A stretch of DNA of 27,268 nt, from contig JBIKWQ010000047.1 in NCBI GenBank assembly GCA_044356215.1, forward strand, positions 1 through 27,268, written 5' to 3'. The translations under genes were made by a program, and so were the position numbers. The notes below the pieces were generated by a model that saw nothing but the letters and a program-made list of their open reading frames with translations, was not told the DNA's origin and made no database searches. Shown one piece after another: positions 571 to 18,151 of this stretch (the stretch's first letter is position 1; each line of letters starts with the position of its first letter). The DNA is from Bdellovibrionota bacterium (GTDB lineage: Bacteria; Bdellovibrionota_C; UBA2361; OMII01).

Positions 571-630
571 GACGAACTAAGCCACAGCTCTACCCCTCTG
601 TGGTGAAAATGTGAACAAATCTCTGTTAAC

Positions 631-659
631 TTGCACAAAACCCCAACACTTACTACCGT
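631..659 (+). promoter_or_regulatory. Putative sigma70 promoter of the ligase gene
   Basis: TTGCAC-N17-TACCGT, 11 nt before ATG 671. Confidence 0.5.
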
Positions 660-670
660 TGCTGAAGCCT

Positions 671-2409: not shown

Positions 2410-4257
2410 ATGCTTCAAGTTAGTTCAATAGAAAAACATTTCGGCGAGAGGGTCCTCTTCTCAAAAGCGTCTCTAACTGTCTCTCCAGGAGAGCGTGTGG
2501 CGCTATTTGGCAGAAACGGCTCAGGTAAATCCACTCTTTTAAAAATCATAGCTGGCGAGGAGACTCCGGACGATGGTGATGTATCAACTCCGAAGGGATA
2601 CAAGATAGGTTTCCTGAAGCAACATCTATCGTTCTCAAAAGCCACGGTCCTAGAGGAGGCGTGCTCAGCTTTACTGGGAGACCCTATCGCTGAGCAGTAC
2701 AAAGCTGAGATCGTTTTAGCGGGGTTGGGATTCTCTGAGCCAGAGTTAGAGCTTTCACCTACGGCGCTCTCGGGTGGTTTTCAGATCCGAATAAATCTCG
2801 CTAAGTTAATCCTCTCAGAGCCAAATATGTTGTTGCTCGATGAGCCAACTAACTATCTCGATATCGTCTCGCTTCGGTGGCTAGAGAGCTTTTTGCAGAC
2901 GTGGCCGGGAGAGATGATCGTGATCTCGCACGATCGTTATTTCTGCGATCAGGTAAGCACGCACAGCGCCCTTGTATATCGCGGCGGATTTAGAAAGATT
3001 GAAGGAAACTCAGAGAAGTTATTCGAAAGGATCTCGGCGGATGAGGAGCTTCACGAGCGCACACGTGAGAACCGCGAGAAAGAGATTAAGCGCATGGAGG
3101 CGTTTATCACCCGCTTTAAAGCGCAGGCGAGCAAAGCTACTCTGGTTCAATCGCGAGTAAAGGCGCTAGCGCGTATGGAGAAGCTAGAGGAGCTCTCAAG
3201 CGATCCAACATTAGATTTCTCTTTTACTCATCTGCCACTACCTGGAAAATTCCCTTTAGAAGTAAAGGACCTCTCCTTTGGATACGCGAATTTAGATAAG
3301 CCTCTAATCGACGGACTATCGTTCGCGATTAAGAAGGATGACCGGTTGGCGGTAATCGGTAAAAACGGGCGTGGTAAATCAACACTTCTCAAACTTTTAG
3401 CCGGAGAGCTGGTTCCGAGCTCTGGTGAAGTGGCGCTTAGCCCTAACACTGTGAGCTCATTCTTCGCGCAGACTAATACTAATCGACTAAATCTCTCAAA
3501 TACGATCGAGACCGAGGTTTATAACGCCAATCAAAAGCTAAGTCGGACAGCGGTCAGAGCTATCTGTGGCTGTATGATGTTTGAGGGTGATGACGCTCTA
3601 AAGAAGATCTCAGTGCTCTCAGGAGGCGAGCGATCGCGCGTATTGCTTGGTAAGATCTTAGCTACCCCAACTAATCTTTTGTTGCTCGATGAGCCAACAA
3701 ACCACTTGGATGTTGAATCGGTGATGGCGTTAACAGAGGCACTTGAAGATTTTCAAGGTGCTGTCGTGATCGTTACTCACAGCGAGGAGATCCTAAGACG
3801 AGTAGCCACCAGGCTAGTTGTGTTCCAAGGAGATAATCCCTTTGTTTTCGAGGGGACTTACGACGAGTTCCTCGATTCGATCGGTTGGGAGGGTGAGGAA
3901 ACGGTCAAGCCATCTAAGGGAAAGAAAAAGAAAAAGGTAGCAGAGGATTCAGATCCTAAGCGCGACAAAGCGCAGCTCTTGCAGGAGCGTTCGCGGGAGT
4001 TAAAGCCGTTACGCGAGAGTGTGGAGAAATTAGAGAAAGAGATTTCGGAGCTAGAAAAGAGGATTTCAGCAACGCAGGAGGATCTGTCACGAGCATCAAA
4101 CAGCGGAAATAGCGCGCAGATACAGAATCTTTCTCGAGATCTCGCCCGCGCGCAAGCGGAGCTAGCGATCCGCATCGAGAAGTGGGAAACAGCGCAGGCT
4201 GAGCTAGAGACGATTCAGAATAGATTTCAGAAAATGATTGATTCTGTGGTGGTGTGA
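2410..4257 (+). CDS. ABC-F family ATP-binding cassette protein (ribosome-associated ATPase)
   Basis: Two nucleotide-binding domains (GRNGSGKST/LSGG/LLLDEPTNYLD and GKNGRGKST/LSGGERSR/LLLDEPTNHLD), no TM segments, FITRFKAQASKA linker, C-terminal coiled coil. Confidence 0.95.
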   Translation: MLQVSSIEKHFGERVLFSKASLTVSPGERVALFGRNGSGKSTLLKIIAGEETPDDGDVSTPKGYKIGFLKQHLSFSKATVLEEACSALLGDPIAEQYKAEIVLAGLGFSEPELELSPTALSGGFQIRINLAKLILSEPNMLLLDEPTNYLDIVSLRWLESFLQTWPGEMIVISHDRYFCDQVSTHSALVYRGGFRKIEGNSEKLFERISADEELHERTRENREKEIKRMEAFITRFKAQASKATLVQSRVKALARMEKLEELSSDPTLDFSFTHLPLPGKFPLEVKDLSFGYANLDKPLIDGLSFAIKKDDRLAVIGKNGRGKSTLLKLLAGELVPSSGEVALSPNTVSSFFAQTNTNRLNLSNTIETEVYNANQKLSRTAVRAICGCMMFEGDDALKKISVLSGGERSRVLLGKILATPTNLLLLDEPTNHLDVESVMALTEALEDFQGAVVIVTHSEEILRRVATRLVVFQGDNPFVFEGTYDEFLDSIGWEGEETVKPSKGKKKKKVAEDSDPKRDKAQLLQERSRELKPLRESVEKLEKEISELEKRISATQEDLSRASNSGNSAQIQNLSRDLARAQAELAIRIEKWETAQAELETIQNRFQKMIDSVVV

Positions 4258-4381: not shown

Positions 4382-5776
4382 ATGAAGAACATCATAGAAA
4401 AAATCTGGGAATCACACGTTATTCCAGCGAAAGAGGCGGGAGCGCCGGATATCTTAACGATAGATTTTATGCTGATGCATGAGGTCACATCGATTCAGGC
4501 GTTTGATCTACTTAAAGAGCGCAGGATCCCGCTTCTTGATAAGGGGCGCCTAGTGGCGACCCTTGATCACAGTATACCAACAAGAAAGAACAGACTTGAG
4601 ATCTACGATCCAGCGGCGAAGACTCAGGTTGAGGCGCTCAGAAGAGTCGCCGCCGATGAGGGCTTAACTCTCTTTGATTTCGGTTCAGGTTATCAAGGGA
4701 TCGTTCACGTTATCGGTCCAGAGCTAGGCTTGACCCAGCCTGGCATGACTATCGTTTGCGGTGACTCTCACACCTCGACTCACGGAGCTTTCGGAGCACT
4801 AGCCTTCGGAGTTGGAACGAGTGAAGTGGGCCATGTGCTAGCCGCCGGTTCTATTCTCCTAAGGAGACCTAAGACGATGCGAGTTGAGTTCGACGGCACG
4901 TTCGCTCCTGGGGTATACGCGAAAGACGCCATATTGAAGTTGATCGCTGAGATCGGAATCGGTGGCGCTAACGGGCATGTGATCGAATACACAGGTAGCG
5001 CGGTCCGAGCGATGTCGATGGAAGAGCGAATGACCGTTTGTAATATGAGTATCGAGTGCGGAGCTCGGGCGGGATTAGTATCCCCAGACGACAAGACGCT
5101 AGCCTTCTTGAAAGGAAGACGGTACTCCCCGAAGGATAGTGATTGGGATCGCGCCGAGAGCTATTGGCGATCCTTAGCGAGCGACGCTGGGGCGACTTAT
5201 GATCGTGAGATCCGGATCGATGTCAGCAAGCTTACCCCGATGGTGACCTGGGGTACCAATCCAGAGCAAGGGATCGAGATTGGGCAGAAGGTTCCCACAC
5301 TAAGCACGCTCCCTGAGTCACACCGAGCCGTAGCACAGCAGGCGTTGGCTTACACACGCTTATCTGAGGGCCAGCCGATAAGTGGAGTGAAGATTAATTG
5401 GGCCTTTATCGGTTCGTGCACAAATGGCCGGATTGAGGACTTAAGGATCGCCGCCAAAGTTCTCAAAGGAAAACAGGTTAGTCCAGAGGTAAAGCTCTAC
5501 ATCGTTCCCGGATCTGAGCAGGTTATGCGGCAGGCGCACGATGAGGGACTAGTGGATATATTCACATCCGCAGGTGCTGATTTTCGCATGCCCGGGTGTT
5601 CGATGTGTCTAGGCATGAACGACGATAAGGTCCCGTCAGGCGAGCGGTGCATCAGCACATCTAACCGTAATTTTATCGGCCGGCAGGGGGAGGGAAGCAT
5701 CACGCACCTGGCATCCCCCGCCACGGTCGCCGCATCAGCGGTTGCCGGCGTGATCACAAGATTTAACGCGGAGTAA
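4382..5776 (+). CDS. leuC: 3-isopropylmalate dehydratase large subunit
   Basis: HEVTS, GIVHVIGPELGLTQPGMTIVCGDSHTSTHGAFG, IGSCTNGRIEDLR, GCSMCLGMN, STSNRNF.GRQG. Confidence 0.98.
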   Translation: MKNIIEKIWESHVIPAKEAGAPDILTIDFMLMHEVTSIQAFDLLKERRIPLLDKGRLVATLDHSIPTRKNRLEIYDPAAKTQVEALRRVAADEGLTLFDFGSGYQGIVHVIGPELGLTQPGMTIVCGDSHTSTHGAFGALAFGVGTSEVGHVLAAGSILLRRPKTMRVEFDGTFAPGVYAKDAILKLIAEIGIGGANGHVIEYTGSAVRAMSMEERMTVCNMSIECGARAGLVSPDDKTLAFLKGRRYSPKDSDWDRAESYWRSLASDAGATYDREIRIDVSKLTPMVTWGTNPEQGIEIGQKVPTLSTLPESHRAVAQQALAYTRLSEGQPISGVKINWAFIGSCTNGRIEDLRIAAKVLKGKQVSPEVKLYIVPGSEQVMRQAHDEGLVDIFTSAGADFRMPGCSMCLGMNDDKVPSGERCISTSNRNFIGRQGEGSITHLASPATVAASAVAGVITRFNAE

Positions 5777-5781
5777 TCAAC

Positions 5782-6387
5782 ATGAAGCCTTTTGCAACAG
5801 TAACTTCAATCGCGGCGCCGGTGGCGATCAAGGATGTCGATACTGACATGATCATCCCAGCGCAATTTTTGACTAGCATATCTCGAGATGGATTTGGCCC
5901 AAACCTCTTTAAGAGACTCCGCGAATCGCGCCCTGATTTCTATCAAAATAACCCCCGATTTAATAAAGCTGAGATCATAGTTGCGGATACGAACTTTGGG
6001 TGCGGCTCATCGCGCGAGCACGCGGTTTGGGCTCTTTTAGGAGCAGGCATCAAGGTTGTTATAGCGCCATCTTTCGCTGATATCTTCGCTGGCAACAGCG
6101 CCAAGAATGGATTGCTTTTAGTGACACTGCCGGAAGATGTGGTGCAAGCATTACTCAATGACGCTCTTAAAAAAGATCTCAAATTAAATGTTAATTTAGA
6201 AACGCAGCTTGTGTCTTCTGATACAGGCGCTGAGTGGAGCTTTAATTACGATCCGTTTAGAAAGCACTGCCTCTTAAACGGGCTAGATGATCTCGATTAT
6301 CTCCGTTCAAAGCTAGATGTAATTCAAGCGAAAAAGAGAGAGCAGAGCTCTAACTGGTTCTACTCAACGTTAACGCCAAACAGGTAG
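5782..6387 (+). CDS. leuD: 3-isopropylmalate dehydratase small subunit
   Basis: DVDTDMIIPAQFL, NFGCGSSREHAVWAL, SFADIF, CLLNGLDD. Confidence 0.98.
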   Translation: MKPFATVTSIAAPVAIKDVDTDMIIPAQFLTSISRDGFGPNLFKRLRESRPDFYQNNPRFNKAEIIVADTNFGCGSSREHAVWALLGAGIKVVIAPSFADIFAGNSAKNGLLLVTLPEDVVQALLNDALKKDLKLNVNLETQLVSSDTGAEWSFNYDPFRKHCLLNGLDDLDYLRSKLDVIQAKKREQSSNWFYSTLTPNR

Positions 6388-6391
6388 CGCT

Positions 6392-7489
6392 ATGAGTGAT
6401 ATTAAACGTGTCGCGGTTTTAGCCGGGGATGGGATCGGCCCAGAAGTAATGGAAGAGGCGCTAGCGACTCTAGCGGTCGTTTGTGAGAAGTACTCAAGGC
6501 GCTTAAGTTTCGCGCAGGCCTTAGTAGGAGGCGCGGCATACATTAAGACAGAGAACCACTTTCCCGATGAAACAAGGGAGATCTGCGCTAAAAGTGACGC
6601 GATCCTCTTTGGTTCAGTCGGTGGTCCGGTATCACAGGCTCACCAACCACAGTGGAAAAACTGCGAGACCAATTCGATCTTAGCTATACGCAAAGCATTC
6701 AAGTTAGCCGCTAATTTTAGGCCAACTGTAGTTTATCCCAGTTTATCTTCGGGCTCGCCTCTAAAGTCGCAAGTTATCGGAGATGGGGTGGACTTAATGA
6801 TCATCCGTGAGCTTCAGGGGGATGTGTATTTCGGTGAGCACACATTTTTTGAGTCACGAGGCGAGCGGAGCGCTCGGGATTCCGGAGAGTACACCGAGAA
6901 TCAGATAAAGTTTGTAGCTCATACAGCGTTTAACGCTGCCAGAAAGCGCCGTAAGGTCGTGCATTCGGTAGATAAAGCTAATGTAATGCATATGTCCAAG
7001 CTCTGGCGTGAAGTAGTGAGTGAGGTGCATCAAGCTGAGTACGCGGATGTGAAGCTAGAGCATATTTTGGTGGATAACTGCGCTTTGCAGCTAGTGAATA
7101 ATCCCGCTCAGTTCGATGTGATAGTGGCGCCTAACCTTTTTGGAGACATCTTGTCCGATTTAGCCGCGGCGTTACCCGGATCGCTAGGATTGTCGCCCTC
7201 GGCGAGCTTTAACAGTGAAGGGTTCGCGCTCTATGAGCCATCGGGGGGATCCGCGCCTGATATAGCGGGTAGAGGCATAGCTAATCCGATAGCCCAGATC
7301 CTATCCGCGGCCATGATGTTACGGTACTCATTTGGCTGGGACGCAGAGGCCAGTGCGATAGAAAACGGGGTGGCTAAAGCTTTATCAGATGGATTTCGCA
7401 CAGCCGATTTAACGCCATCAGATAACTCATCACACAAACCAGCGACGACCAGAGAGATGGGAGACGCGATCCGGGAGCGGATTAGTTAA
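6392..7489 (+). CDS. leuB: 3-isopropylmalate dehydrogenase
   Basis: LAGDGIGPEV, GSVGGP, SVDKANV, NLFGDILSD, YEPSGGSAPDIAG, ANPIAQILSAAMMLRYS. Confidence 0.98.
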   Translation: MSDIKRVAVLAGDGIGPEVMEEALATLAVVCEKYSRRLSFAQALVGGAAYIKTENHFPDETREICAKSDAILFGSVGGPVSQAHQPQWKNCETNSILAIRKAFKLAANFRPTVVYPSLSSGSPLKSQVIGDGVDLMIIRELQGDVYFGEHTFFESRGERSARDSGEYTENQIKFVAHTAFNAARKRRKVVHSVDKANVMHMSKLWREVVSEVHQAEYADVKLEHILVDNCALQLVNNPAQFDVIVAPNLFGDILSDLAAALPGSLGLSPSASFNSEGFALYEPSGGSAPDIAGRGIANPIAQILSAAMMLRYSFGWDAEASAIENGVAKALSDGFRTADLTPSDNSSHKPATTREMGDAIRERIS

Positions 7490-8314: not shown

Positions 8315-11300
8315 CTACTGACAAGTCAGCCCAGGATTTGGGAACTGCTCCATGCTAGTTGAGAGCCTTCTCATATCTGCCTTCGCGGCCTGTTTGAGGC
8401 TCGCTCGGCGTTGTCTGTACTCGGCCCTCGCGCGGTTAGTTCTCATACAGCAGCTATCAAGCACGTCACGCATGTCATTCGCGATCGCGTTACCAGCGGA
8501 CTGAATACCATTCTTAGGAGTGGTAATATCCTCAAGCGCGCAACTCTTGTAACTTGAACAGATCAAAGTCCAAGTTTGTGAGAAGAGATCGTTGTTAACA
8601 GAATTGGCGGCGCCATCGTACAGTGCCTTGGCCTTCTGTCTGAGTGCTCGATCGGCCGCCGCTGATGGGGCGCGGCAGGTGTTGAGACACTTGCTTGATC
8701 CAGGCAAGCACTTATAGCACCCGTTGTCCGCAGCCTTACAGTATCCCGCGCGGGCATACTGCTGACGAAGCGCGAGAGCCTTATCGAGCCCCTCTCGTAT
8801 ACGAAGGAGTCTAGCCTTCATTCCGTCAAGCGACTCGCTTAAGTCAGACACTGTGCATTCTGGATTAGTGCTGGCTGTCTCAAGACGTACCTCTCCGCAG
8901 CGAATGTCCACATAGCTCTCTGTGCTAGCCGAGGTTGTGGCAGTGGTCGCGTAGCTCGCTAACTCAGCAGAGTTGGGGATCGTTACTGAAGCGGCCTTGA
9001 GGGAGCTAAGCACTGGCACCTTGTAAGACACTACGTATGACTCACCAACATTTAGCCTTGGCTCATTTGATGTGTTGCGAACAGAGATAGTGATTACCTG
9101 CGCCGCCTGCGAGAAGGAGAATCCCGCTACTCCAGTAACACTCGCGCCATTTAGTGTGGCGGATGTTAACGAGGAGGTTCCTGTTCCCTTAACCAGAGTG
9201 TCAGTAATGTTTGACACCTGGAATGCTGGGTAGTTACCAACGTTTGTGAGTGTAAGGGTGTAGGCGATCTCCGCTCCTGGGAACACCGGCCCAACTGTAG
9301 TTGTGCTCTTGGTTAAGGTTATGCGGGGTCTCGCTTGGAATACCACGTTATTGGCGTCCGAGTTTGTGACAACTATAGTCTGCTCACTGATGAGATCTCC
9401 AAATGGAGATACGGCCCTAGCTGTATAGGTTCCATCTGGGACACCGGAGAGCGTAAATACTCCGTTAGAGTCAGTCGTTCCAGTAAACGAAGTTCCTACC
9501 AGAGAAACCGTTGTTCCGCTCACTCCGTTTTGCTGACCTGATCCGGCTGTCTCCTTCGAGAAGATTACCCGTCCAGATATATTGTTACTATCAACAGCGA
9601 TTGTGGCGCTGGCGGGAGTAACGTTTGTCAGGGTCTCGCGTGGGCCATTATCGATCGCTCCTGTGGCATAGCTCGCCACAGTCGCCGTGTTAACTAGCGA
9701 AGAAGTCGAGCCGCTGACAGAAGATGTTAATGGTGCATTGTATCTAACAACGTACACATCACCAGCAGCAAGTCGTGCTTGGCCACTTGAGTTGCGAACA
9801 GTGATCGTCAACTGTTGACCACTCTGAGTAAAGCTAAAGCCAGAGGCGCCTGTTACGCTGGTTCCATTTAAAGTAGCACTGACTAAGCTAGCGCTTCCTA
9901 ATCCAGGAGGCAGGGTGTCGACTATGCTAGCCACATCATACGCTGTCGCTGTTCCAGAGTTCGTTAATGTCACTTGATACTCAGCGTTTTGACCAAACCT
10001 AAGTGGCGGAGTCGACAACGATGTCTTAGCCAAAGTTAGGGTTGGACGAACAACCGTAAAATTAGCGGTTGCTGTTAACGAGGTCTTGTTAGCGGACGTC
10101 TCACCGCTGACAGAGGAGTTCTTCGTCACCCACTCAACATCAGCTCGATTTGTATACGCGCCTGGTATCAGGCCAGAGCGTATCGTCGCCTTGTAGCGGA
10201 AGGTAAATGACTGAGCTGTGGCGGCGCTATTTATCAGCGTGCCTAAATTCACCCGGTGAATTGTGGTGCTCGATTGAGTTTGTGTTGTGTTTGGATTCAG
10301 CTCAAAGCAAACGTTTGAGTTACCAACGAAGTTAAAGAGTCCAGCGCAAGCCGGATTTGACTCGATGCTTGGGAAGGTGATCGTCCCCGCGCTAAAGTTC
10401 TCAAAGAAGTTGGTTGAGGTCCCAGCGGTAGCTGTATCTCTCTCGCGGATAGTGAACGACTCGGCGGTTCCAGGAGGAATAGTTATCGTCACATCGAAAT
10501 CAGCGCTCTCTCCCGGGCGGAGGTTGCTTCCTGTTGTGGCGGGGTCAGTTGAGCTGTCCGCGACGAGTGTCTTTGTCAGAGACGGCGAAGCTGCGGTTGT
10601 GCTAGCTGTGTCTGAGATCGGTGAGAATAGAGGTCCACCTGGGGTTGAGGCGTAACGTGATGTAACGGTATTGGTAATAACGCCTCCGAAGGCCGCGGTG
10701 GCGTCGAGGGTCGCGTCATACTGAACAGTGCAGGTCTGTCCCGCTGGAATATCAATCCCCGTCGCGCTAATCGTTGTTCCGCTCGATGTGTCAGTAGGTG
10801 CTGCGCCGGTTGAGCAGTTTGAGAAAGTTAAAGACCCACCAACTCTTGTAAGACCGACTGGAAGTGGATCTGATAGAGTAACGCTGAAAGCGTCATAGTC
10901 ACCGATATTCTCAAGAACGACTTGAAATCTTAGTCGACTTCCAGGAGTAACGTTAGTGAAGTTAGCGGCTCCGCCTGTTCCCGATACGGTTCCGCTTCCG
11001 GACACAACTGAGGCAGCGGCCTTAGTGATGCGGATATCAGGTTGATCCGTTAACAGCGACGCGATAGCTGAAAGCAAATTGATCGCTGTCAGGCTCTGGC
11101 TGCTGTTTTGGCTGAAGTAAGCCACATTCACAAGCAATAGATCGTTAGCTGCCGGATTATTTGTTGCTGTTACTGTAAAAAGAAGCTCGACGAAAGCCGA
11201 GTTGCTGGTCACATCACTCTCCTCGGTGAAGGACAACTTAAGCGCGTTCTCAGCGCCAACAACTGTTATTGTCGGCGCGACGGTGAAGCTAGCGGTAGTT

Positions 11301-13252
11301 AGATGTATATGTCCAGGAGCTGGAGCAGCATCGCTCGCGGTAGCATCGAAGATGAAGTTCGATGGCGTTGTAGCCGTTGGATTTAAAACATCAAATATCG
11401 GTGAAGGTAAGAAGTCCTTTAATACAAAGCCCTCCACATCCCCGGTTGGAATGGTGAAAGCAAGTCTGAATGTGAGGTTGTCTCCTGGGCTTACGTTGAC
11501 CGGGAAAGAAGTTACAGCAACCCCATTCTTAAACGCGACATCTTTCTGCACGTCTGTAATCGGAGTGATGGTGATTGAGGCAGTTGGGCCGTTCACTGCT
11601 AATCGGTTAGCGGTCCCCGCGATTCTGAAATCCGCGGTCATCGTATCGCTGATAACGTCTCCACCATCAACCGTTTGAGTTCCAACGACTGAGCCAGTGA
11701 AGATCTCGTCAATAGTTGACTGGTAGGTGATTACTACCCGGGTTGGGGCGTCTACGCCTAGATCCTCAGCGCCCGTCAGGGTTCCATCAGTTCCGTAACC
11801 ATTGGGTGAAGGAGCGATTAAAGCTGCCGAGAGATCCAGATCAATCAGCCACTCGCCTGTGGTGCCGTTTCTGTTAATTGGCTGTAGCGGTGTTCCTGCC
11901 GCGGCTGATAACTGAGCTTGAGTGCGGGTTACTCCGGTGGCGGAGCCCTCGAAGACAGTGACTTGGAGCGAATTGTTGATATAGGTTTGACCGTCGCTTA
12001 GCGTGTCAGTAATCTGTAGATCATCAAACGAGAAATAGTCTGAGATGTCATAGATCAAGGTGTGGGTAAGGGTATCACCTGGCTTGGCCGTTGAGCCGCC
12101 CGTTGTCGCGTTAGTGATCGACTTGGATGTGTAGAGCGACCTGTGTTCTAAAGTGGCGGAAGCTGGGCCCGATGTTAGGTTTAGGTTGCCTGATCCTGGA
12201 TCGTAGTTATAAGTGGTGCTCGCTGAATTCGTTGACGTCGTTGTCGCTCCAGTAGTAGGTGGGATAATAGGCGCTCCAGATCCACCGGCGAACTCCTGCA
12301 CGTACCCTGTGTAAGTAACCTGCTTATCGAGACCTGGATCTCCGGTAATGCTCGCGTAGGTTACCGTAAGAGTGCCCCCGCCCGCGCTTGTTCCTGTGAA
12401 AGAGCAGGTATCGCCAGCGCCCAAGCTTGGGCTAAATGTAAGGCTTCCTGGATTAGTTTTGCAGTTGCTGCCAGGGAGTGATGTAAAAACGAATGTATTG
12501 GGCAATACATCTGTGATCACGTTTGTAGTCGTGGTGAAGGTGTTCGCCACAGTGACATCTAGGGTAAAGCGTCTTGGATAGCTCGGACCAGTCGCTGTTG
12601 AGCCATCGAAAAGCGCGGCTACGCTCTTTTGAAGTAAGAGAATAGTTGGTGTTACGTTAACAGTTGTGGCGCTGGTACAAAGGGTATCGCCTGTTCCGCA
12701 AGGCCCACGTGTTCCGTTTGGTACTGCTCCCAGAGCAAAAACAGCAGTAGCGTTTACAGGCTCTGGAACACCGAGGGTCGCTGTCGCTAGGACCTTAGCC
12801 GGTATCGAGTAGGTGATCGCTGGCTCGTTCTGAGCGACGCTTCCAACAGGAAGAGAGAAAAAGATAACTGATTGGCCCGCCGTTACAGGGACCTGATTGC
12901 CGGTTACTGGGTTGGTGTAGTTAGTGCTGCCGCCCGCTGGTCCGAAAGCTGTTAAGCTTACCGGAGCACCGCCGAGAGAGGTAATAACTATGCCGTTTCG
13001 GCAGGTGGCGTCACATTCGATCCCTGCTGGGAGCTTTACTTCTAGCATCGGGTAGTAACCAAGGGCGTCACCTGTATTAGTGAACGATACCTCGACGTTG
13101 ATATTAGAGTTTAACAGGGCGTTGGCAGGTGCCTGAATAGTCGCTGTAGGTATCGGAGCGGCGAAAGCTGAATCAGAAGACGCGGCGAATATTAGCGGGA
13201 GAAGGGTAAGGAGAGTTGATTTAACTAGGCGCTTGGTAAAACTAAACAACAT
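8315..13252 (-). CDS. Large secreted surface/adhesin-like protein with DUF11 / isopeptide-forming repeats, a carboxypeptidase-regulatory-like domain and a Cys-rich helical C-terminal domain
   Basis: Signal peptide (KRLVK...SAFA|A). About seven repeats of type xxK...PGD/E.x.Y.x.x.N.G...D.LP...N (e.g. LTKSTTTVGPVFPGAEIAYTLTLTNVG...ITDTL...IPNSA). GTTDSNGVFTLSGVPDGTYT motif; Thr/Ser/Gly-rich. Start set at ATG 13252, 6 nt after GGAG. Confidence 0.88.
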   Translation of the reverse strand: MLFSFTKRLVKSTLLTLLPLIFAASSDSAFAAPIPTATIQAPANALLNSNINVEVSFTNTGDALGYYPMLEVKLPAGIECDATCRNGIVITSLGGAPVSLTAFGPAGGSTNYTNPVTGNQVPVTAGQSVIFFSLPVGSVAQNEPAITYSIPAKVLATATLGVPEPVNATAVFALGAVPNGTRGPCGTGDTLCTSATTVNVTPTILLLQKSVAALFDGSTATGPSYPRRFTLDVTVANTFTTTTNVITDVLPNTFVFTSLPGSNCKTNPGSLTFSPSLGAGDTCSFTGTSAGGGTLTVTYASITGDPGLDKQVTYTGYVQEFAGGSGAPIIPPTTGATTTSTNSASTTYNYDPGSGNLNLTSGPASATLEHRSLYTSKSITNATTGGSTAKPGDTLTHTLIYDISDYFSFDDLQITDTLSDGQTYINNSLQVTVFEGSATGVTRTQAQLSAAAGTPLQPINRNGTTGEWLIDLDLSAALIAPSPNGYGTDGTLTGAEDLGVDAPTRVVITYQSTIDEIFTGSVVGTQTVDGGDVISDTMTADFRIAGTANRLAVNGPTASITITPITDVQKDVAFKNGVAVTSFPVNVSPGDNLTFRLAFTIPTGDVEGFVLKDFLPSPIFDVLNPTATTPSNFIFDATASDAAPAPGHIHLTTASFTVAPTITVVGAENALKLSFTEESDVTSNSAFVELLFTVTATNNPAANDLLLVNVAYFSQNSSQSLTAINLLSAIASLLTDQPDIRITKAAASVVSGSGTVSGTGGAANFTNVTPGSRLRFQVVLENIGDYDAFSVTLSDPLPVGLTRVGGSLTFSNCSTGAAPTDTSSGTTISATGIDIPAGQTCTVQYDATLDATAAFGGVITNTVTSRYASTPGGPLFSPISDTASTTAASPSLTKTLVADSSTDPATTGSNLRPGESADFDVTITIPPGTAESFTIRERDTATAGTSTNFFENFSAGTITFPSIESNPACAGLFNFVGNSNVCFELNPNTTQTQSSTTIHRVNLGTLINSAATAQSFTFRYKATIRSGLIPGAYTNRADVEWVTKNSSVSGETSANKTSLTATANFTVVRPTLTLAKTSLSTPPLRFGQNAEYQVTLTNSGTATAYDVASIVDTLPPGLGSASLVSATLNGTSVTGASGFSFTQSGQQLTITVRNSSGQARLAAGDVYVVRYNAPLTSSVSGSTSSLVNTATVASYATGAIDNGPRETLTNVTPASATIAVDSNNISGRVIFSKETAGSGQQNGVSGTTVSLVGTSFTGTTDSNGVFTLSGVPDGTYTARAVSPFGDLISEQTIVVTNSDANNVVFQARPRITLTKSTTTVGPVFPGAEIAYTLTLTNVGNYPAFQVSNITDTLVKGTGTSSLTSATLNGASVTGVAGFSFSQAAQVITISVRNTSNEPRLNVGESYVVSYKVPVLSSLKAASVTIPNSAELASYATTATTSASTESYVDIRCGEVRLETASTNPECTVSDLSESLDGMKARLLRIREGLDKALALRQQYARAGYCKAADNGCYKCLPGSSKCLNTCRAPSAAADRALRQKAKALYDGAANSVNNDLFSQTWTLICSSYKSCALEDITTPKNGIQSAGNAIANDMRDVLDSCCMRTNRARAEYRQRRASLKQAAKADMRRLSTSMEQFPNPGLTCQ

Positions 13253-13577
13253 ACACATCTCCAATAGACGTTCTCAAGCCAACACTTCCTAGAGATTCTC
13301 CAGAGTGTGACCGCCGTCATTGTGTAGCCTAGAAAGGGGGTTGGGATCAACTTTAGCGGCGAACTCTTTCTTTACTCTAGTTGTTCAGTGATTAGCTGAC
13401 CTAAATAAAGCTGTTATTACAAGTGTTTGCTAGTTAAACGGGAGCCCCGAGGGCGTTGCTTGCTTCGGATAGTAGCGGGTAGGTGCGACTACCGTTTCAA
13501 GGAGCAAGAACCTAGTTTGGGTGGCGGTACATCATACCCTTTGCAAGTTAGGGTTGGGAGTTAATTAGGGAGAAAAG

Positions 13578-14531
13578 ATGCGGAATATACTAAAGGGCAT
13601 GATTCGAGTCGTAGCCACGGTGGCGTTTGTGATGACGGCAGTGGCTGGGAGGGCTTGGGGGGAGGAGATGTTCCTTTTGGACCGAGCGGCGCGCAGTAAG
13701 AAGAAACCGGAAAATGTTACTCTTACATTTAAACAGTCAGATGGCAGGGATGCTGCTTCTCGGGCTGTGATCAAGTTACCCACAAGCGATAAAGTGATGG
13801 AAGCACTCTATTCCGGGGATAATTTGCTGGTTGCCACGGAGACTAAAAGCCGCGGAAAGCATGAGCCTAGAGTATATCAGTTTTTGGTGAATGAAGACGG
13901 ATCTACTAAGCGTGTTGCTAGGCGTCGGCCGAGTGAGGAAGATCTGGCACTGTTTGGGAGAGTCGCTGAATCGCGAAGGCCTAGCCGCCCAGCCACCTGC
14001 AATGGCCCAGGGTGCAGCCCGAATACAGTTCCCAGTGTCCCTGTTGTGGGTCAACCATATTACCCCCCAGTTGTTAACCCTCCCTCAACCGGTGGCAACA
14101 ACATTATGTGCATGACAGCGGGAGATGTTCGTTGTGGTCCGGCGGGGAAACCAGGCGAGCAGTGGTGCTGTCCGAAGGATCCAGGGTGCGGGAGTGCTAA
14201 GGACGTTTGCGGAAGCGGGGGAGGGCAGCCCAAGCCACCGGTTTCGCCGCCGCAGCCTCCAACGGGTGGAGATTGTCCAGGGGCCTATGCAAACGAGAAT
14301 ACAAAGAAGTGCTCGTTTAACTCGACGTTTACGTGCTGCAAACCATCAGAATCATGTAGCACCATAAAAGTTGATGATGGAACAACAATCCCTTTCTGTA
14401 GCACTAGTAGTAATCCGCCGATGGGAGGAGGTCCAGGTGTGGGTGCGCCTCCACTTGCAAATCCTAGCCCAGGATTATGTTATTATGATCCCACAACTGG
14501 ACAGAAAATTTGCCCAAGGAGAGGTTTCTAA
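13578..14531 (+). CDS. Secreted Cys/Pro-rich hypothetical protein
   Basis: GGAG Shine-Dalgarno, signal peptide (..AVAGRAWG), charged N-terminal domain, then 16 Cys in Pro/Gly-rich linkers; followed by a strong hairpin. Confidence 0.75.
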   Translation: MRNILKGMIRVVATVAFVMTAVAGRAWGEEMFLLDRAARSKKKPENVTLTFKQSDGRDAASRAVIKLPTSDKVMEALYSGDNLLVATETKSRGKHEPRVYQFLVNEDGSTKRVARRRPSEEDLALFGRVAESRRPSRPATCNGPGCSPNTVPSVPVVGQPYYPPVVNPPSTGGNNIMCMTAGDVRCGPAGKPGEQWCCPKDPGCGSAKDVCGSGGGQPKPPVSPPQPPTGGDCPGAYANENTKKCSFNSTFTCCKPSESCSTIKVDDGTTIPFCSTSSNPPMGGGPGVGAPPLANPSPGLCYYDPTTGQKICPRRGF

Positions 14532-14538
14532 AAAACAA

Positions 14539-14574
14539 ATCGGCCCCCCAAGCTGTCACGCTTGGGGGGCCGAT
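14539..14574. terminator. Intrinsic terminator hairpin between convergent genes
   Basis: ATCGGCCCCCCAAGC-TGTCAC-GCTTGGGGGGCCGAT is a perfect 15-bp stem. The A-run on its left gives a U-tract on the minus strand. Confidence 0.85.
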
Positions 14575-14606
14575 AAAAGCGCCTCTATGCAGATGCGCTG
14601 CGCTTG

Positions 14607-15182
14607 TTACTTATGACTCTGTATCGAAGTATAAGCCATCAAGCCTAAGCTCTGAGCGCGTTTAATCGCTTTTGATACTTTGCGCTGATTGTAGGCTGTT
14701 AAGCCGGTTAAACGACGTGACAGGATACGACCGCGCTCGCTAACAAACTTTGAGAGCATCGCTACATCTTTGTAGTCGATCGACTTGGTTGGATCCTCAG
14801 TAAAGGGGTCAAGCTTCTTACGACGCTTGAAGAGCTGAGTTCTCTGAATCGATGGGAGTGGCTCGAACTTTCTGCCGCCCTCTTGTCCCTCTGATGAACC
14901 AGTTGATGGTCCAGAATTCTTGCCGCGATCCTCGCACACCTTCATCGGGCGGCCATTTAGTGGGCGGTTGTTTAAGCCCTCGATCGCCTTCTTAGCGTCG
15001 TCCTCGCTCTCCATCTCAACGAAAGCGAAACCCTTTGAGCGCTTCGTCTCACGGTCAGAGGCTACTACTACACTTAATGTTGGCCCAACCTCGTCGAAGA
15101 GGGCGCGGAGCTGATCGCTCGTTACTTCAAAATCGAGATTGCTAATAAAAAGCTTCTTCTTTGATACTGCGCCAGAATTCAT
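14607..15182 (-). CDS. rpsR: 30S ribosomal protein S18 fused to an N-terminal RRM RNA-binding domain (191 aa)
   Basis: RNP2 KLFISNL and RNP1 KGFAFVEM, a Gly/Ser linker, then RRKK...IDYKDVAMLSKFVSERGRILSRRLTG...QRKVSKAIKRAQSLGLMAY (bS18). ATG 15182 is preceded by GGAG; the ORF-track TTG at 15248 is the -35 box. Confidence 0.92.
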   Translation of the reverse strand: MNSGAVSKKKLFISNLDFEVTSDQLRALFDEVGPTLSVVVASDRETKRSKGFAFVEMESEDDAKKAIEGLNNRPLNGRPMKVCEDRGKNSGPSTGSSEGQEGGRKFEPLPSIQRTQLFKRRKKLDPFTEDPTKSIDYKDVAMLSKFVSERGRILSRRLTGLTAYNQRKVSKAIKRAQSLGLMAYTSIQSHK

Positions 15183-15219
15183 GAACACTCCATTTGCGTG
15201 AATATTTTCAAGGCCCGGG

Positions 15220-15248
15220 ATGCTACCTATCACTGGGGAAAATGTCAA
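15220..15248 (-). promoter_or_regulatory. Sigma70 promoter of the RRM-S18 gene
   Basis: TTGACA-N17-TAGCAT on the minus strand. Confidence 0.8.
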
Positions 15249-15296
15249 ACTGGGGAGATTTCCTACCCCCTAACTTAAAGTTACTTAAAAGAACTA

Positions 15297-15325
15297 TTGA
15301 CGCCAGAAACCAACCGATGTATCTT
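15297..15325 (+). promoter_or_regulatory. Sigma70 promoter of the structured RNA
   Basis: TTGACG-N17-TATCTT immediately before the rod structure. Confidence 0.7.
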
Positions 15326-15518
15326 CTGAATCCAGATTTGTGAGCGAGCACAGCCAGTTGCGGCCGTTTGGGATGGGTTGGGGAATCTCTCCTTCTAGGC
15401 GCTGGTGGCAAGTTTGCCGCGGTCTTTAAATATCGTGGAGAGATAGTTAACTCCTCGAAAAGACAGAGTGGAAGACAAGGTTACGCAGCTTGCAAACTCA
15501 ACCAAACACGCGATTCAG
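15326..15518 (+). ncRNA. Probable 6S RNA (SsrS)-like rod-shaped non-coding RNA, about 190 nt
   Basis: Nested pairings CTGAATC/GATTCAG, TTTG/CAAA, TGAG/CTCA, CGAGC/GCTTG and AGCC/GGTT. A central bubble (AGTTGCGGCC opposite AGAGTGGAAGACAA) follows, then GGGTTGG/TTAACTC, ATCTCTCC/GGAGAGAT and an apical GTGGCAA/TTGCCGC. G-U wobbles work only on the plus strand; it has its own promoter. Confidence 0.65.
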
Positions 15519-15530
15519 ACAACAAGTCAG

Positions 15531-15554
15531 TCTCTTGAGCGCCCGTTCAAGAGA
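15531..15554 (+). terminator. Hairpin after the ncRNA (terminator or processing site; no U-tract)
   Basis: TCTCTTGAGC-GCCC-GTTCAAGAGA. Confidence 0.45.
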
Positions 15555-15604
15555 GAATAACCGATTCAATATAACTGTAGAGTAACAGGAGTAATAACGG
15601 AGCT

Positions 15605-15919
15605 ATGAGCAATTCTGCCAATAATTTCTTGCCCGAAGATGAAGTAGAAGCATCCTCCCCAGTTAAGCCTGAAAGAAATCTCCTAGCGGCGGTATTAGCG
15701 CGAGCTATCTGCGACGCTTTCGGAACAGCTCACTGTGAGCGTCACGTGGTGCGCAGCGCGCGTCAGTGGCTCTTCGGTAAGCTTACTCCAAAGCGCCCAT
15801 TTAGCTTTGCTTGGGTGGCGCTGCATCTGGACCTCGATCCGATCTCGCTTCAAGAGAGCCTCCGTAATTACGAGGGTGATCCAGAGGCGTTCCAAGAGCG
15901 TCTCAGCTTGTTACGCTAA
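15605..15919 (+). CDS. Small conserved-type hypothetical protein
   Basis: GGAG upstream. PERNLLAAVLARAICD...ARQWLF...PFSFAWVALHLDLDP resembles an uncharacterised small helical family I recall from delta-proteobacterial lineages and phages (not verified). Confidence 0.75.
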   Translation: MSNSANNFLPEDEVEASSPVKPERNLLAAVLARAICDAFGTAHCERHVVRSARQWLFGKLTPKRPFSFAWVALHLDLDPISLQESLRNYEGDPEAFQERLSLLR

Positions 15920-16117
15920 ATGACACTGTCTCCGTGGCGTAAATGCGTGGTGGCGGCAGCCGCCATCACGCTTGTTGTTGCTTATCAGCTTTATCAAGTC
16001 GCCAGCCTTACCGGAAACTACGAAGGCATGTGGTTTTCACTCGCTCATACCGTGATGGTAGCGGTTGGGGTTGTGTTGGCGTTGAGACGGGTTGGGGGTC
16101 AGGCAGGGGCCTCCTAG
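15920..16117 (+). CDS. Small two-TM membrane protein (putative)
   Basis: ATG directly abuts the upstream TAA; two hydrophobic stretches (CVVAAAAITLVVAY; LAHTVMVAVGVVLAL). Confidence 0.5.
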   Translation: MTLSPWRKCVVAAAAITLVVAYQLYQVASLTGNYEGMWFSLAHTVMVAVGVVLALRRVGGQAGAS

Positions 16118-16452
16118 GCGATAGATTCAAGACCTTTACTCTGCACTAGAGCTAGTAGTTTTAATGATGGACCCGAAGGCTTTTTCTCTCCTCGTTCCCA
16201 TTGACTGATCGATGTAATTGTAACGTTCAGGTAATGCGCAAATACGGATTGACTTACGTTTTCACGCTCCCGAATAGCGCGAATCTCATCGCCTGTAAGA
16301 TCTTTCACGGGAGTTAAACAGGAGTTGTTGAATTCCTGCATTGTGTGTTTGCTGATGACACCGGTCTCTCGTAAGCTCGCTGCAGCTTCGTGAATAGCAG
16401 CGAAGGCGTCACTCCTATAGTGCTTAGCTTCGCTTCCCTTTCTTTTCTTCAT
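16114..16452 (-). CDS. HigA-like XRE/HTH antitoxin
   Basis: YRSDAFAAIHE...TMQEF...C...EIRAIRERENVSQSVFAHYLNV...ISQWERGEKKPSGPSLKLL; overlaps the end of the toxin gene. Confidence 0.92.
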   Translation of the reverse strand: MKKRKGSEAKHYRSDAFAAIHEAAASLRETGVISKHTMQEFNNSCLTPVKDLTGDEIRAIRERENVSQSVFAHYLNVTITSISQWERGEKKPSGPSLKLLALVQSKGLESIA

Positions 16453-16819
16453 AAGTCTTTATCCTCTCTAAATCACCTCTGGCTTCCTGTCTCTCAAGCT
16501 GGGCTTGAGTCATGCTCAGCATAATTCCGGCAAGCTTTTTAAACTCGCGCAATTCAGCGCCGGTTATGTTGTCTCTGTCCTTCTTTGAGAACCCGTAAAT
16601 AAAAAAAACTAGCTCCCCCTTCTTATAAAACAGAATTGTTCTGTATCCCCCAGATTTACCCGCCCCGGTTCGAGCCACCCGTTGCTTGATTACTCCGCCC
16701 CCAAGGTTGGCATCAACTGATCCGCGCTCCATTGACTCGACAATTCTAACCAGATCGCGATCTTCAATACCCGATCGTGCGGCATATCGAGTAAACCACT
16801 TGCTTTTAAAGATCTGCAC
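16424..16819 (-). CDS. Type II toxin, RelE/ParE superfamily (HigB-like, toxin-first operon)
   Basis: IFKSKWFTRYA...DANLGGGVIKQRVARTGAGKSGGYRTI...FFIYGFSKKDRDNI. Confidence 0.92.
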   Translation of the reverse strand: MQIFKSKWFTRYAARSGIEDRDLVRIVESMERGSVDANLGGGVIKQRVARTGAGKSGGYRTILFYKKGELVFFIYGFSKKDRDNITGAELREFKKLAGIMLSMTQAQLERQEARGDLERIKTYEEKKGKRS

Positions 16820-17267: not shown

Positions 17268-18050
17268 TCATCCCCGCCCCCAACTAGGCTCTCTCTTCTC
17301 AATTAAAGCCCGAATCCCTTCGGCAAACTCAGTAGAATTATAATTTATACTCTGTGCTTCAGCCTCGTGATTAAGAGCTGCCTGCAATTCAGATAAATCA
17401 CCACGCATAGTTTGAAGTAGCTGTATTCTCGCTGCAGGTCCACACGCTAAGATCTCATTCGCCACTTTTTGCGCCTCATTTAGCACCTCATCACGGGTCG
17501 TAACTCGTGACACTAATCCAAGCCGTAGCCCCTCCGCCGCGTTAATAATCCTTCCGGTTAATAGAAGTTCAGTAGCAGCGGATCTCCCGATAATTCGCGG
17601 AACCAGAAATGTTCCGCCCATTCCAGGATGTAGCCCCAGCTTTAAAAATGTAAATCCAAGCTTCGTATCATCACTAGCGATCCGGATATCAGCGGCACAT
17701 GCCAGACAGAGGCCAGCGCCAACGGCGGCTCCATGCAGAGCGGCGATAATCGGCACATTTAGAGTAAGGATAGAGAGGAATGAGTCATAAAACTTTAGCA
17801 TCCCAACGCGGTTTTCCTCTTTAGAGCGTGAGCGTTTGGCGTCAAGCATCTCTAAGTGACCACCCGCTGAGAAAGATCGGCCAGCTCCACGAAGGATAAT
17901 CACCTTCGCGGCCCCTTCCACCTTTAGACGTGACATCACAGAGGCGAACTCATCCGCCATCGCCTCACTCATGGCATTTAGATTCACTTCGTCGTTTAAA
18001 GTAATCGTAACGATCCCTTGCGGGTTTATCTCTGAAATAACTAGCGGCAT
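17268..18050 (-). CDS. Enoyl-CoA hydratase/isomerase (crotonase) family protein
   Basis: ITLN...NAM, LRGAGRSFSAGG, PIIAALHGAAVGAG...AADIRIA, ELLLTGR, EGIRALIEKREP. Start set at ATG 18050. Confidence 0.93.
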   Translation of the reverse strand: MPLVISEINPQGIVTITLNDEVNLNAMSEAMADEFASVMSRLKVEGAAKVIILRGAGRSFSAGGHLEMLDAKRSRSKEENRVGMLKFYDSFLSILTLNVPIIAALHGAAVGAGLCLACAADIRIASDDTKLGFTFLKLGLHPGMGGTFLVPRIIGRSAATELLLTGRIINAAEGLRLGLVSRVTTRDEVLNEAQKVANEILACGPAARIQLLQTMRGDLSELQAALNHEAEAQSINYNSTEFAEGIRALIEKREPSWGRG

Positions 18051-18151
18051 AATAGATAGGAGGCTGCCACGAGAAGAGCGCGCTGGCAATTAAAATCAAA
18101 GAGCGCTGCCCTTCGCATGCGCCGTTTGTTTATGATATCGTTCAAGCATCT

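Follow-up and report, generated by a model that had tools for sequence, protein, structure and literature searches.

Bacterial ribosomal proteins are usually viewed as a fixed set, and bacterial proteins built on an RRM domain as free-standing and poorly understood. We describe here a gene in which one uninterrupted frame joins an RRM to a complete ribosomal protein bS18; it lies on contig JBIKWQ010000047.1 (positions 1-27,268, hereafter the window) of a Bdellovibrionota bacterium (assembly GCA_044356215.1). The encoded protein shares with canonical bS18 (rpsR; PF01084, TIGR00165) a near-full family match, a single copy per genome and the presence of bS6, but it has about 114 extra N-terminal residues with a folded RRM and is encoded alone instead of between rpsF and rplI.

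Of the other described systems, chloroplast bS18c comes close in that it also carries a lineage-specific extension of the bS18 N-terminus; according to the available text of a preprint (bioRxiv 10.64898/2026.07.03.736309), however, this extension measures 19-55 residues, is made of a repeated 7-residue basic/aromatic motif and has no fold, whereas the fusion bears a full tethered RRM. The one described ribosomal protein that is built from RRMs, cS22 (PSRP2; chains 5mmj_v and 5x8p_v), is among the best sequence and fold matches of the fusion, at the level of a single domain only: it is a separate protein with two RRMs and no bS18 part, a land-plant invention, and the available preprint text places both RRMs on 16S helices h6 and h10 at the foot of the 30S subunit (bioRxiv 10.64898/2026.07.03.736309). 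With its single RRM joined to bS18, the fusion does not belong to the cS22/PSRP2 family. bS1 is likewise a flexible single-strand-RNA-binding module, situated at the head-platform cleft, and its OB2 domain contacts bS18 (PMC10123108, available text); it consists, however, of OB folds and is bound through uS2, and our genome encodes a full-length bS1 too, so that the RRM is additional. In Bacteroidia, bS21, bS18 and bS6 sequester the anti-Shine-Dalgarno (anti-SD) sequence, with bS18 affecting the pairing of the 16S 3' tail on the same platform surface, as an initial annotation of the window had correctly stated; but the part of the report available (PMC7797042) ascribes this to core residues of bS18, in organisms where Shine-Dalgarno (SD) sequences are near-absent, while here SD sequences are enriched and the novelty is an added domain. 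Free glycine-rich RNA-binding proteins (Rbp) contain the same type of domain, and their Gly/Arg-rich tail resembles the linker of the fusion, but they are separate proteins of ~90-150 amino acids (aa); the corresponding model, NF058537 (Rbp_regulator), is the nearest NCBIfam model for the RRM of the fusion, which scores 85.1 bits against a cut-off of 100 and thus falls outside this family. What is new here is that a whole folded RNA-binding domain serves as a lineage-specific extension of a ribosomal protein, at a functionally sensitive site.

The gene and the parts of its product are as follows.

14607..15182, minus strand: RRM-bS18 coding sequence, 191 aa plus stop (ATG at 15182..15180, stop codon at 14609..14607)
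14925..15158, minus strand: RRM domain, residues 9-86, beta-alpha-beta-beta-alpha-beta
14871..14924, minus strand: low-complexity flexible linker rich in Gly, Ser and Glu, residues 87-104 (18 residues)
14832..14870, minus strand: conserved segment directly before the canonical bS18 N-terminus, residues 105-117, delimited from the alignment
14628..14831, minus strand: bS18 module, residues 118-185 (TIGR00165, PF01084)

Both domains are recognised well above threshold. RRM_1 (Pfam PF00076) matches residues 11-80 (E 2.7e-23, 82 bits, cut-off 20.7), Ribosomal_S18 (Pfam PF01084) matches residues 133-182 over positions 3-52 of a 52-position model (E 4.8e-24, 84.7 bits, cut-off 21), and the NCBIfam S18 equivalog TIGR00165 matches residues 118-185 over positions 1-68 of 70 (79.7 bits, cut-off 38.75). 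The single frame with a complete bS18 that the initial annotation had reported, without naming the strand, is thereby upheld by Pfam and NCBIfam alike, and the strand is minus. Residues 118-185 align with residues 4-72 of the solved, 75-residue bS18 chains; since residue 118 pairs with residue 4, the added N-terminal part amounts to ~114 residues, which comprise the RRM, the tether and a conserved 13-residue lead-in. The RNP1 and RNP2 motifs of RRMs are defined with aromatic residues, and the translation reads LFISNL at RNP2 and KGFAFVEM at RNP1, exactly as annotated. Zinc-binding, cysteine-bearing forms of bS18 exist; the bS18 part of the fusion is not one of them, as had been noted, for the sole cysteine of the protein is C83, within the RRM, and residues 105-191 are free of cysteine.

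To assess which parts of the protein are conserved, we aligned 26 proteins spanning the phylum, 25 of which bear the RRM. The bS18 core (residues 125-185) has a mean pairwise identity of 0.59, followed by the RRM (0.48) and the lead-in segment (0.34). The linker reaches only 0.19; its length varies from 8 to 50 aa among the 25 RRM-bearing relatives, and its composition is G 23%, S 16% and R 12%. By contrast with this variable linker, the aromatic RNP positions are kept: RNP2 position 2 is F/Y in 25/25 RRM-bearing rows, RNP1 position 3 is F/Y in 25/25 and RNP1 position 5 is F in 24/25. This pattern suggests that the RNA-binding face is under constraint, whereas the sequence of the tether is free and the tether would be needed merely as a tether. 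The lead-in segment takes order-specific forms, FEPLPSIQRxQLF and PMGYFRAQPLDLG, and is retained even in the one relative whose bS18 has no RRM (see below).

The structure predicted by AlphaFold2 from the 26 relatives agrees with this division. The RRM is modelled with a predicted local distance difference test score (pLDDT) of ~96 and the strand/helix order E-H-E-E-H-E, the bS18 module with a pLDDT of ~90, and the segment between them (residues 89-105) with a pLDDT below 50, in line with the Gly/Ser/Glu linker that had been annotated there. The predicted template modelling score (pTM) of the whole is 0.45, as expected if the fusion is arranged as two beads on a string, which is how the model depicts it. 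The domain is thus an RRM by family cut-off, by its beta-alpha-beta-beta-alpha-beta order and by its RNP aromatic residues. Compared by Foldseek with solved structures, it superimposes on RNA-binding RRMs with a target-normalised template modelling score of ~0.9. Its matches include chloroplast cS22 (5mmj_v; E 4.3e-20 by sequence, rank 14 by Foldseek) as well as cold-inducible RNA-binding proteins, found among both the sequence and the fold matches in the PDB; no solved chain in the PDB sequence comparison matched both halves of the fusion.

We then determined how widely the fusion occurs in a sample of 96 genomes of the phylum with a completeness of at least 85% (the phylum is a single class in the collection, so that class and phylum draws give the same families). 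Exactly one S18 match was obtained in 93 of them, the three genomes without a match being G020 (90% complete), G110 (85%) and G074 (86%). Of these 93 matches, 91 belong to open frames of 170-268 aa, and both query domains align in the same 91 genomes, in 88 as a single alignment and in G090, G042 and G070 as two pieces of one frame (for G070, the fusion was confirmed on the fetched locus). One stop codon falls inside the both-domain alignment in seven rows (G099, G122, G083, G036, G087, G098 and G065), the S18 frames of which span 181-212 aa; these stops may reflect overrun of the alignment at an end. The fusion is therefore not peculiar to this assembly, a possibility that the initial annotation had raised. 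The two exceptions among the 93 are G052, which has a partial match in a 48-aa frame, and G050, where the frame is 110 aa long and encodes a bS18 of 82 aa, which opens exactly with the conserved lead-in motif and is preceded by an AAGGAG Shine-Dalgarno sequence of its own.

L035 (G050:C117) 2499..2747, strand not stated: RRM-less bS18 of G050, 82 aa

No RRM was found in the 4-kb S18 locus of G050, which keeps its upstream neighbours, an enoyl-CoA hydratase gene and the gene of a 104-aa protein that is discussed below. Because the family mates of G050, G053 and G054, carry the fusion, the absence of the RRM in G050 is a secondary loss, and G050 represents a natural RRM deletion.

Beyond this sample, hundreds of database proteins have both Pfam domains precomputed but are named plainly 'S18', so that the RRM is invisible to readers of the annotation. 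Both domains are also present on all members of an ESM Atlas cluster of 50 members. The source labels of the lineage's proteins are diverse: SAR324 cluster bacterium, Deltaproteobacteria bacterium, Oligoflexia bacterium, Bdellovibrionales bacterium and Candidatus Dadabacteria bacterium. In the phylum of a metagenome-assembled genome (MAG) labelled Bdellovibrionales, outside the lineage, none of 151 genomes gave a both-domain match (best score 75 bits, for a single domain). Two further searches do not bound the distribution: in a search of representative proteins with the whole fusion, the best 150 matches were dominated by eukaryote-like multi-RRM proteins and included at least four fusion-like representatives (P0122, P0139, P0148 and P0164), and a scan of the genome collection with the alignment was useful only for three loci described below (L077, L061 and L110), the window's own lineage not being among the matches listed. 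Full-text searches, the coverage of which leaves out most subscription journals, returned no description of an RRM-bS18 fusion. The architecture, for which the initial annotation knew of no described example, thus appears to be undescribed in papers as had been supposed, but it is present, unremarked, in hundreds of database proteins.

The possibility that the fusion is an artefact, i.e. an assembly chimera or a frameshifted gene pair, is countered by this repeated occurrence, since 91 genomes, each assembled independently, share the same single frame, as do hundreds of database proteins of several origins. It is also countered by contigs assembled from public runs that contain the stretch and are labelled lake water metagenome. 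Contigs of three metatranscriptome runs, X8, X11 and X12, span positions 14582-15198, 14589-15170 and 14535-15183, respectively, and differ from the window by 2-5 substitutions, with no insertion, deletion or joint; a contig of DNA run X3 covers the frame with substitutions only and continues beyond it on both sides. None of these four runs is flagged as a possible source of this DNA. Read support across the linker, which had been proposed as a check, is therefore obtained, with neither stop nor frameshift, and an artefact is excluded for practical purposes. Altogether, we regard it as virtually certain that the gene is real, present as the sole copy and found throughout the lineage.

The fusion is the only S18 match in its genome (3.24 Mb in 131 contigs, 96.5% complete), i.e. 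the count of other rpsR copies is zero; RRM matches number two, the fusion itself and a free RRM protein on another contig. The usual operon is split. Neither rpsF nor rplI was found within the window, and rpsF is located on another contig (G000:C78; 77.5 bits, over the cut-off), which provides the bS6 partner, in the gene order rplY-pth-rpsF-rplI. On that contig (locus L016, 1465..2511), rpsF and rplI, preceded by rplY (L25) and pth, adjoin with a gap of 57 nucleotides (nt) and without rpsR at its usual place. The location of the gene outside the rpsF-rpsR-rplI context, pointed out in the initial annotation, is thus corroborated. That annotation had left it undecided whether the fusion is constitutive or a swappable paralogue. 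The second option is not supported, as no second rpsR was detected in any of the 96 genomes; being the sole S18 copy and the only available bS18, the fusion fits the constitutive option. For the same reason, namely that the genome has no other S18, we consider it very probable that the fusion is incorporated into ribosomes.

An internal start that would give rise to an RRM-less isoform was also considered and rejected: of 20 RRM-bearing fusion genes checked, only eight encode the Met of a PMGYF motif, none of them with an SD-like motif at -15 to -5, and at this position the protein of the window lacks a Met.

Around the coding sequence, the following signals were recognised.

15220..15248, minus strand: promoter-like site TTGACA-17-TAGCAT, matching 10 of 12 consensus positions (consensus match only)
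15188..15191, minus strand: Shine-Dalgarno-like GGAG, 5 nt before the ATG
14529..14574, minus strand: terminator-like hairpin (14574..14539, 15 pairs, 11 of them G-C) followed by a T-run, between convergent genes (consensus match only)

The GGAG or GAGGAG ahead of the ATG recurs in 11 loci of the same genus. As to the promoter and terminator that the initial annotation had assigned to the gene, both sites are there as consensus matches, but their number is not clearly above chance (two promoter-like and two terminator-like matches in the region, versus 1.3 and 1.7, respectively, expected from shuffles). The contigs of the RNA runs have their 5' ends at 15170-15198, downstream of the promoter-like site, while the DNA contig continues, and their 3' ends at 14535-14589, near the terminator-like hairpin. 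Contigs from RNA libraries can contain DNA carry-over and cannot prove transcription; their ends give a weak hint of a monocistronic transcript and of its 5' end. That the fusion gene stands alone as its own transcription unit is supported. No Rfam family matched positions 14300-16200 at E values up to 1.

We also asked whether the apparatus of translation initiation is otherwise complete in this organism. Profile searches of the genome identified a full-length bS1 (613 bits, over the cut-off), bS21 and bS20, which settles the state of rpsA and rpsU that was to be checked. SD usage was estimated with a deliberately crude rule, applied to frames of at least 200 codons, read from their first ATG and with at least 150 codons remaining. 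An SD core was found at -18..-4 in 27.7% of 1990 frames, versus 10.8% in the control window, with a peak at -15 to -8; for 150 kb of Escherichia coli K-12, the same rule gave 36.7% versus 3.3% (n=120 frames). By this crude measure, the SD excess is 0.169 here and 0.333 in the E. coli sample, i.e. about half. SD pairing is thus in use, although the organism may rely on it less than E. coli does. For the 16S of this genome, the assembly covers only model positions 9-902 and lacks the 3' end; the canonical anti-SD ends the 16S of four relatives, while that of a fifth (G037) failed the anchor-motif match. As regards the fusion genes themselves, an SD core (GGAG, GAGG or AGGA) is present in 9 of 20 start-upstream stretches from outside the window's genus and absent from the other 11. 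Since bS1, bS21, SD enrichment and the relatives' anti-SD are all present, the RRM is an addition to the canonical apparatus and not a replacement.

An unfused form of what looks like the same pairing was encountered elsewhere. In a MAG labelled Planctomycetota, a gene for a glycine-rich Rbp (rbp) immediately precedes a stand-alone rpsR that is read from the same strand.

L077 1413..1757 and 1951..2232, same strand: rbp-rpsR pair of the MAG labelled Planctomycetota

The pair recurs in 12 of 26 close relatives of that MAG (the G124 relatives) and in two MAGs labelled Pirellulales (L061 and L110). It links an RRM protein with rpsR independently, and it illustrates how a fusion could arise, by loss of the stop codon and conversion of the Gly/Arg tail into a linker; it does not show common descent with the fusion. 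A phylum-wide adjacency of rbp and rpsR in Planctomycetota was considered and dropped, as an even draw contained it in one of 80 S18 loci, that of the starting genome.

Where the RRM would be placed in the ribosome can be judged from published work on bS18. bS18 lines the mRNA exit channel (PMC10123108, available text), in agreement with the initial annotation, which had located it beside the exit. The available part of the preprint cited above reports that the N-terminus of E. coli bS18 turns ordered upon mRNA contact in initiation, and that the N-terminal extension of chloroplast bS18c projects into the platform cavity, with mRNA binding predicted and probably providing added contacts (bioRxiv 10.64898/2026.07.03.736309). 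In Flavobacterium, bS6 and bS18 form a groove that accommodates the 16S 3' tail with its anti-SD (PMC7797042, available text). From these bS18 structures, we infer a position of the RRM near the mRNA exit; so placed, the tethered domain could reach the 5' mRNA as it exits, as well as bS1, the free 16S tail and the SD/anti-SD helix.

We propose that the bS18 module assembles normally into the 30S platform, beside bS6, with its N-terminus directed into the platform cavity, where the SD/anti-SD helix is close by. All ribosomes of the lineage would then carry a leashed single-strand-RNA-binding domain beside the exiting 5' mRNA, the most likely job of which would be the auxiliary capture or holding of an unstructured mRNA leader during initiation. 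The RRM would thus act as a small built-in helper alongside bS1 and SD pairing. We see about an even chance that the fusion is such a constitutive bS18, with a tethered RRM that holds the single-stranded mRNA leader at the exit, and mRNA is the predicted ligand of the RRM with a likelihood that we put slightly short of even. Several observations weigh against this proposal. The initiation apparatus is complete without the RRM (bS1, bS21, SD core at a frequency of 0.277 versus 0.108, anti-SD in four relatives); the only described RRM-built ribosomal protein, cS22, binds rRNA helices, not mRNA; the RRM can be lost, since one species, G050, has an RRM-less bS18 with its own SD; a tether of 8-50 residues leaves the reach of the domain loosely fixed; and the rbp-rpsR pair is confined to one Planctomycetota clade.

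The behaviour of cS22, both RRMs of which sit on 16S h6 and h10 (bioRxiv 10.64898/2026.07.03.736309, available text), speaks for the main competing explanation, which we consider unlikely: that the RRM binds rRNA, notably the 16S 3' anti-SD tail, and either stabilises the platform or gates SD pairing. The RRM would then parallel, as a protein domain and with the same low probability, the way in which bS21, bS18 and bS6 sequester the anti-SD in Bacteroidia, and the location of the Flavobacterium 16S 3' tail in the bS6/bS18 groove (PMC7797042, available text) points in this direction, as do an SD excess that by the crude measure is about half that of the E. coli sample (0.169 versus 0.333) and the lack of an SD core in 11 of the 20 start-upstream stretches from outside the window's genus. 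Yet SD sequences are enriched at -15 to -8, which indicates that the anti-SD is in use, and a disordered tether of 8-50 aa with an identity of 0.19 better suits a roaming domain than a fixed contact with rRNA. The properties of this tether are also relevant to another, rather improbable role, that of an RNA chaperone or assembly aid, which, as a permanent component of the ribosome, would promote folding of the 16S platform while the 30S subunit assembles or, at low temperature, unwind structured mRNA at the exit: the linker is rich in Gly, Ser and Arg, like the tail of an Rbp, the RRM itself resembles the free glycine-rich Rbp (NF058537, 85.1 bits), and cold-inducible RNA-binding proteins are among its PDB sequence and fold matches. 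The cyanobacterial glycine-rich, cold-inducible Rbp are thought to melt mRNA structure or to act as chaperones. Their gene, rbp, is the commonest upstream neighbour of the gene of a ribosome-associated small protein (PMC13640635, available text). The resemblance remains, however, under the NF058537 cut-off of 100, and the separate free RRM protein of the genome could serve such roles.

A function apart from translation at large, in which the RRM would serve the regulation of its own gene or work off the ribosome and would replace the operon control lost when rpsR left rpsF-rplI, strikes us as very improbable; free RRM-bS18 would in that case bind its own mRNA or further transcripts. A monocistronic gene with its own promoter-like and terminator-like sites, outside the rpsF-rplI unit, is what this would lead one to expect, and bS18 of Bacteroidia has been proposed to regulate its own translation (PMC7797042, available text); but the 5' leader would be short (~30 nt if the promoter-like site is used), the region 14300-16200 contains no Rfam family, and G050 keeps the place of the gene and its neighbour without the RRM. 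To retain a domain in 91 of 93 genomes solely for this purpose is possible but uneconomical.

Another conserved feature of the locus is the neighbour of the fusion gene, here divergent, which encodes a protein of 104 aa.

15605..15919, plus strand: 104-aa protein (P0271), divergent neighbour of the fusion gene
15297..15325, plus strand: promoter-like site TTGACG-17-TATCTT, upstream of the P0271 gene

P0271 had no match in Pfam, NCBIfam or the PDB sequences, and none of 24 family members had a PHROG match. It is nevertheless present in 96/96 genomes of the phylum, with 2-3 weaker paralogues per genome (E ~1e-8 to 1e-12). By hand tally, its gene and that of S18 were both located in 92 genomes, 79 of which have them on one contig and within 1.5 kb of each other; in the 13 exceptions, the two are on different contigs (10 genomes) or 4-33 kb apart on the same contig (3 genomes). 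Among 31 fetched loci, homologues of P0271 (in L005-L015, L020, L022, L026-L030 and L032-L039) are divergent in 14, which belong to the window's order, and upstream on the same strand, in an operon-like arrangement, in 11 from other orders; one locus has a weak paralogue and five have none. Of 23 aligned relatives, 22 are 65-90% identical to the copy in the window (30% for the weak paralogue), versus 36-51% for the fusion in the same orders, so that P0271 is far more conserved than the ribosomal protein. C36, C44 and H47 are nearly invariant. The protein is modelled as a five-helix bundle (mean pLDDT 78), for which Foldseek found nothing in the PDB at E 0.001 or better. A wide comparison with VIA-align gave a best Z of 5.1, which is ordinary for helical bundles, and Z values of 3.6-4.4 for bS20 chains, bS20 being separately encoded in the genome; look-alikes in the ESM Atlas fall in unnamed, partly viral clusters. 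Prediction of a complex between RRM-bS18 and P0271 returned scores of 0.00 and 0.00, which count neither for nor against binding. P0271 is the best candidate for a functional partner of RRM-bS18.

An RNA-library contig of run X12 covers 15347..15500, its start at 15347 lying downstream of the TTGACG-17-TATCTT site; together, the site and this start suggest a leader of ~260 nt for the P0271 gene. This putative leader (15335-15610) folds no better than shuffled sequences (z -1.42; 17 of 200 shuffles equal) and has no Rfam match.

In an uncultivated, phylum-level lineage, the platform protein of the 30S subunit by which the mRNA exit is lined has permanently acquired an RRM. Binding of leaders by the RRM would make this a natural ribosome with a built-in mRNA-recruiting module, and a tool for leader-specific ribosome engineering, while binding of the 16S tail would represent a new way to gate SD pairing. 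Either way, the fusion offers a concrete place to seek the function of bacterial Rbp, to which the rbp-rpsR pair of Planctomycetota points likewise, and the RRM-less G050 together with the conserved neighbour provide ready-made comparisons. A more far-reaching scenario, which is a long shot, would have the ribosomal RRM read a feature of mRNA leaders or bind and release the anti-SD tail, so that the choice of starts is made partly by a protein domain of the ribosome, a third mode after those based on SD pairing and on bS1, with the 104-aa protein as its partner or regulator and free Rbp acting at bS18 elsewhere.

Other genes of the window were recorded in passing. A RelE-family toxin gene (PF06296, E 1e-42) and an overlapping gene for a helix-turn-helix, MqsA-like antitoxin (16114..16819, minus strand) sit between the 104-aa gene and an enoyl-CoA hydratase gene (17268..18089); in four fetched loci of other orders (L022, L028, L030 and L035), the enoyl-CoA hydratase gene immediately precedes the 104-aa gene, and both are read from the same strand. 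On the other side of the fusion gene, a 317-aa protein rich in Pro, Gly and Cys (13578..14531), without family, adjoins a secreted-looking repeat protein of 1649 aa (8315..13264, minus strand), which weakly matches DUF11, DUF7927 and CarboxypepD_reg-like models and is Cys-rich in its C-terminal region. Further away, the window encodes a leuC/leuD/leuB-like trio (4382..7489) and an ABC-F type ATPase (2410..4257), which adjoins an ATP-dependent DNA ligase with N, M and C domains (611..2302, plus strand).

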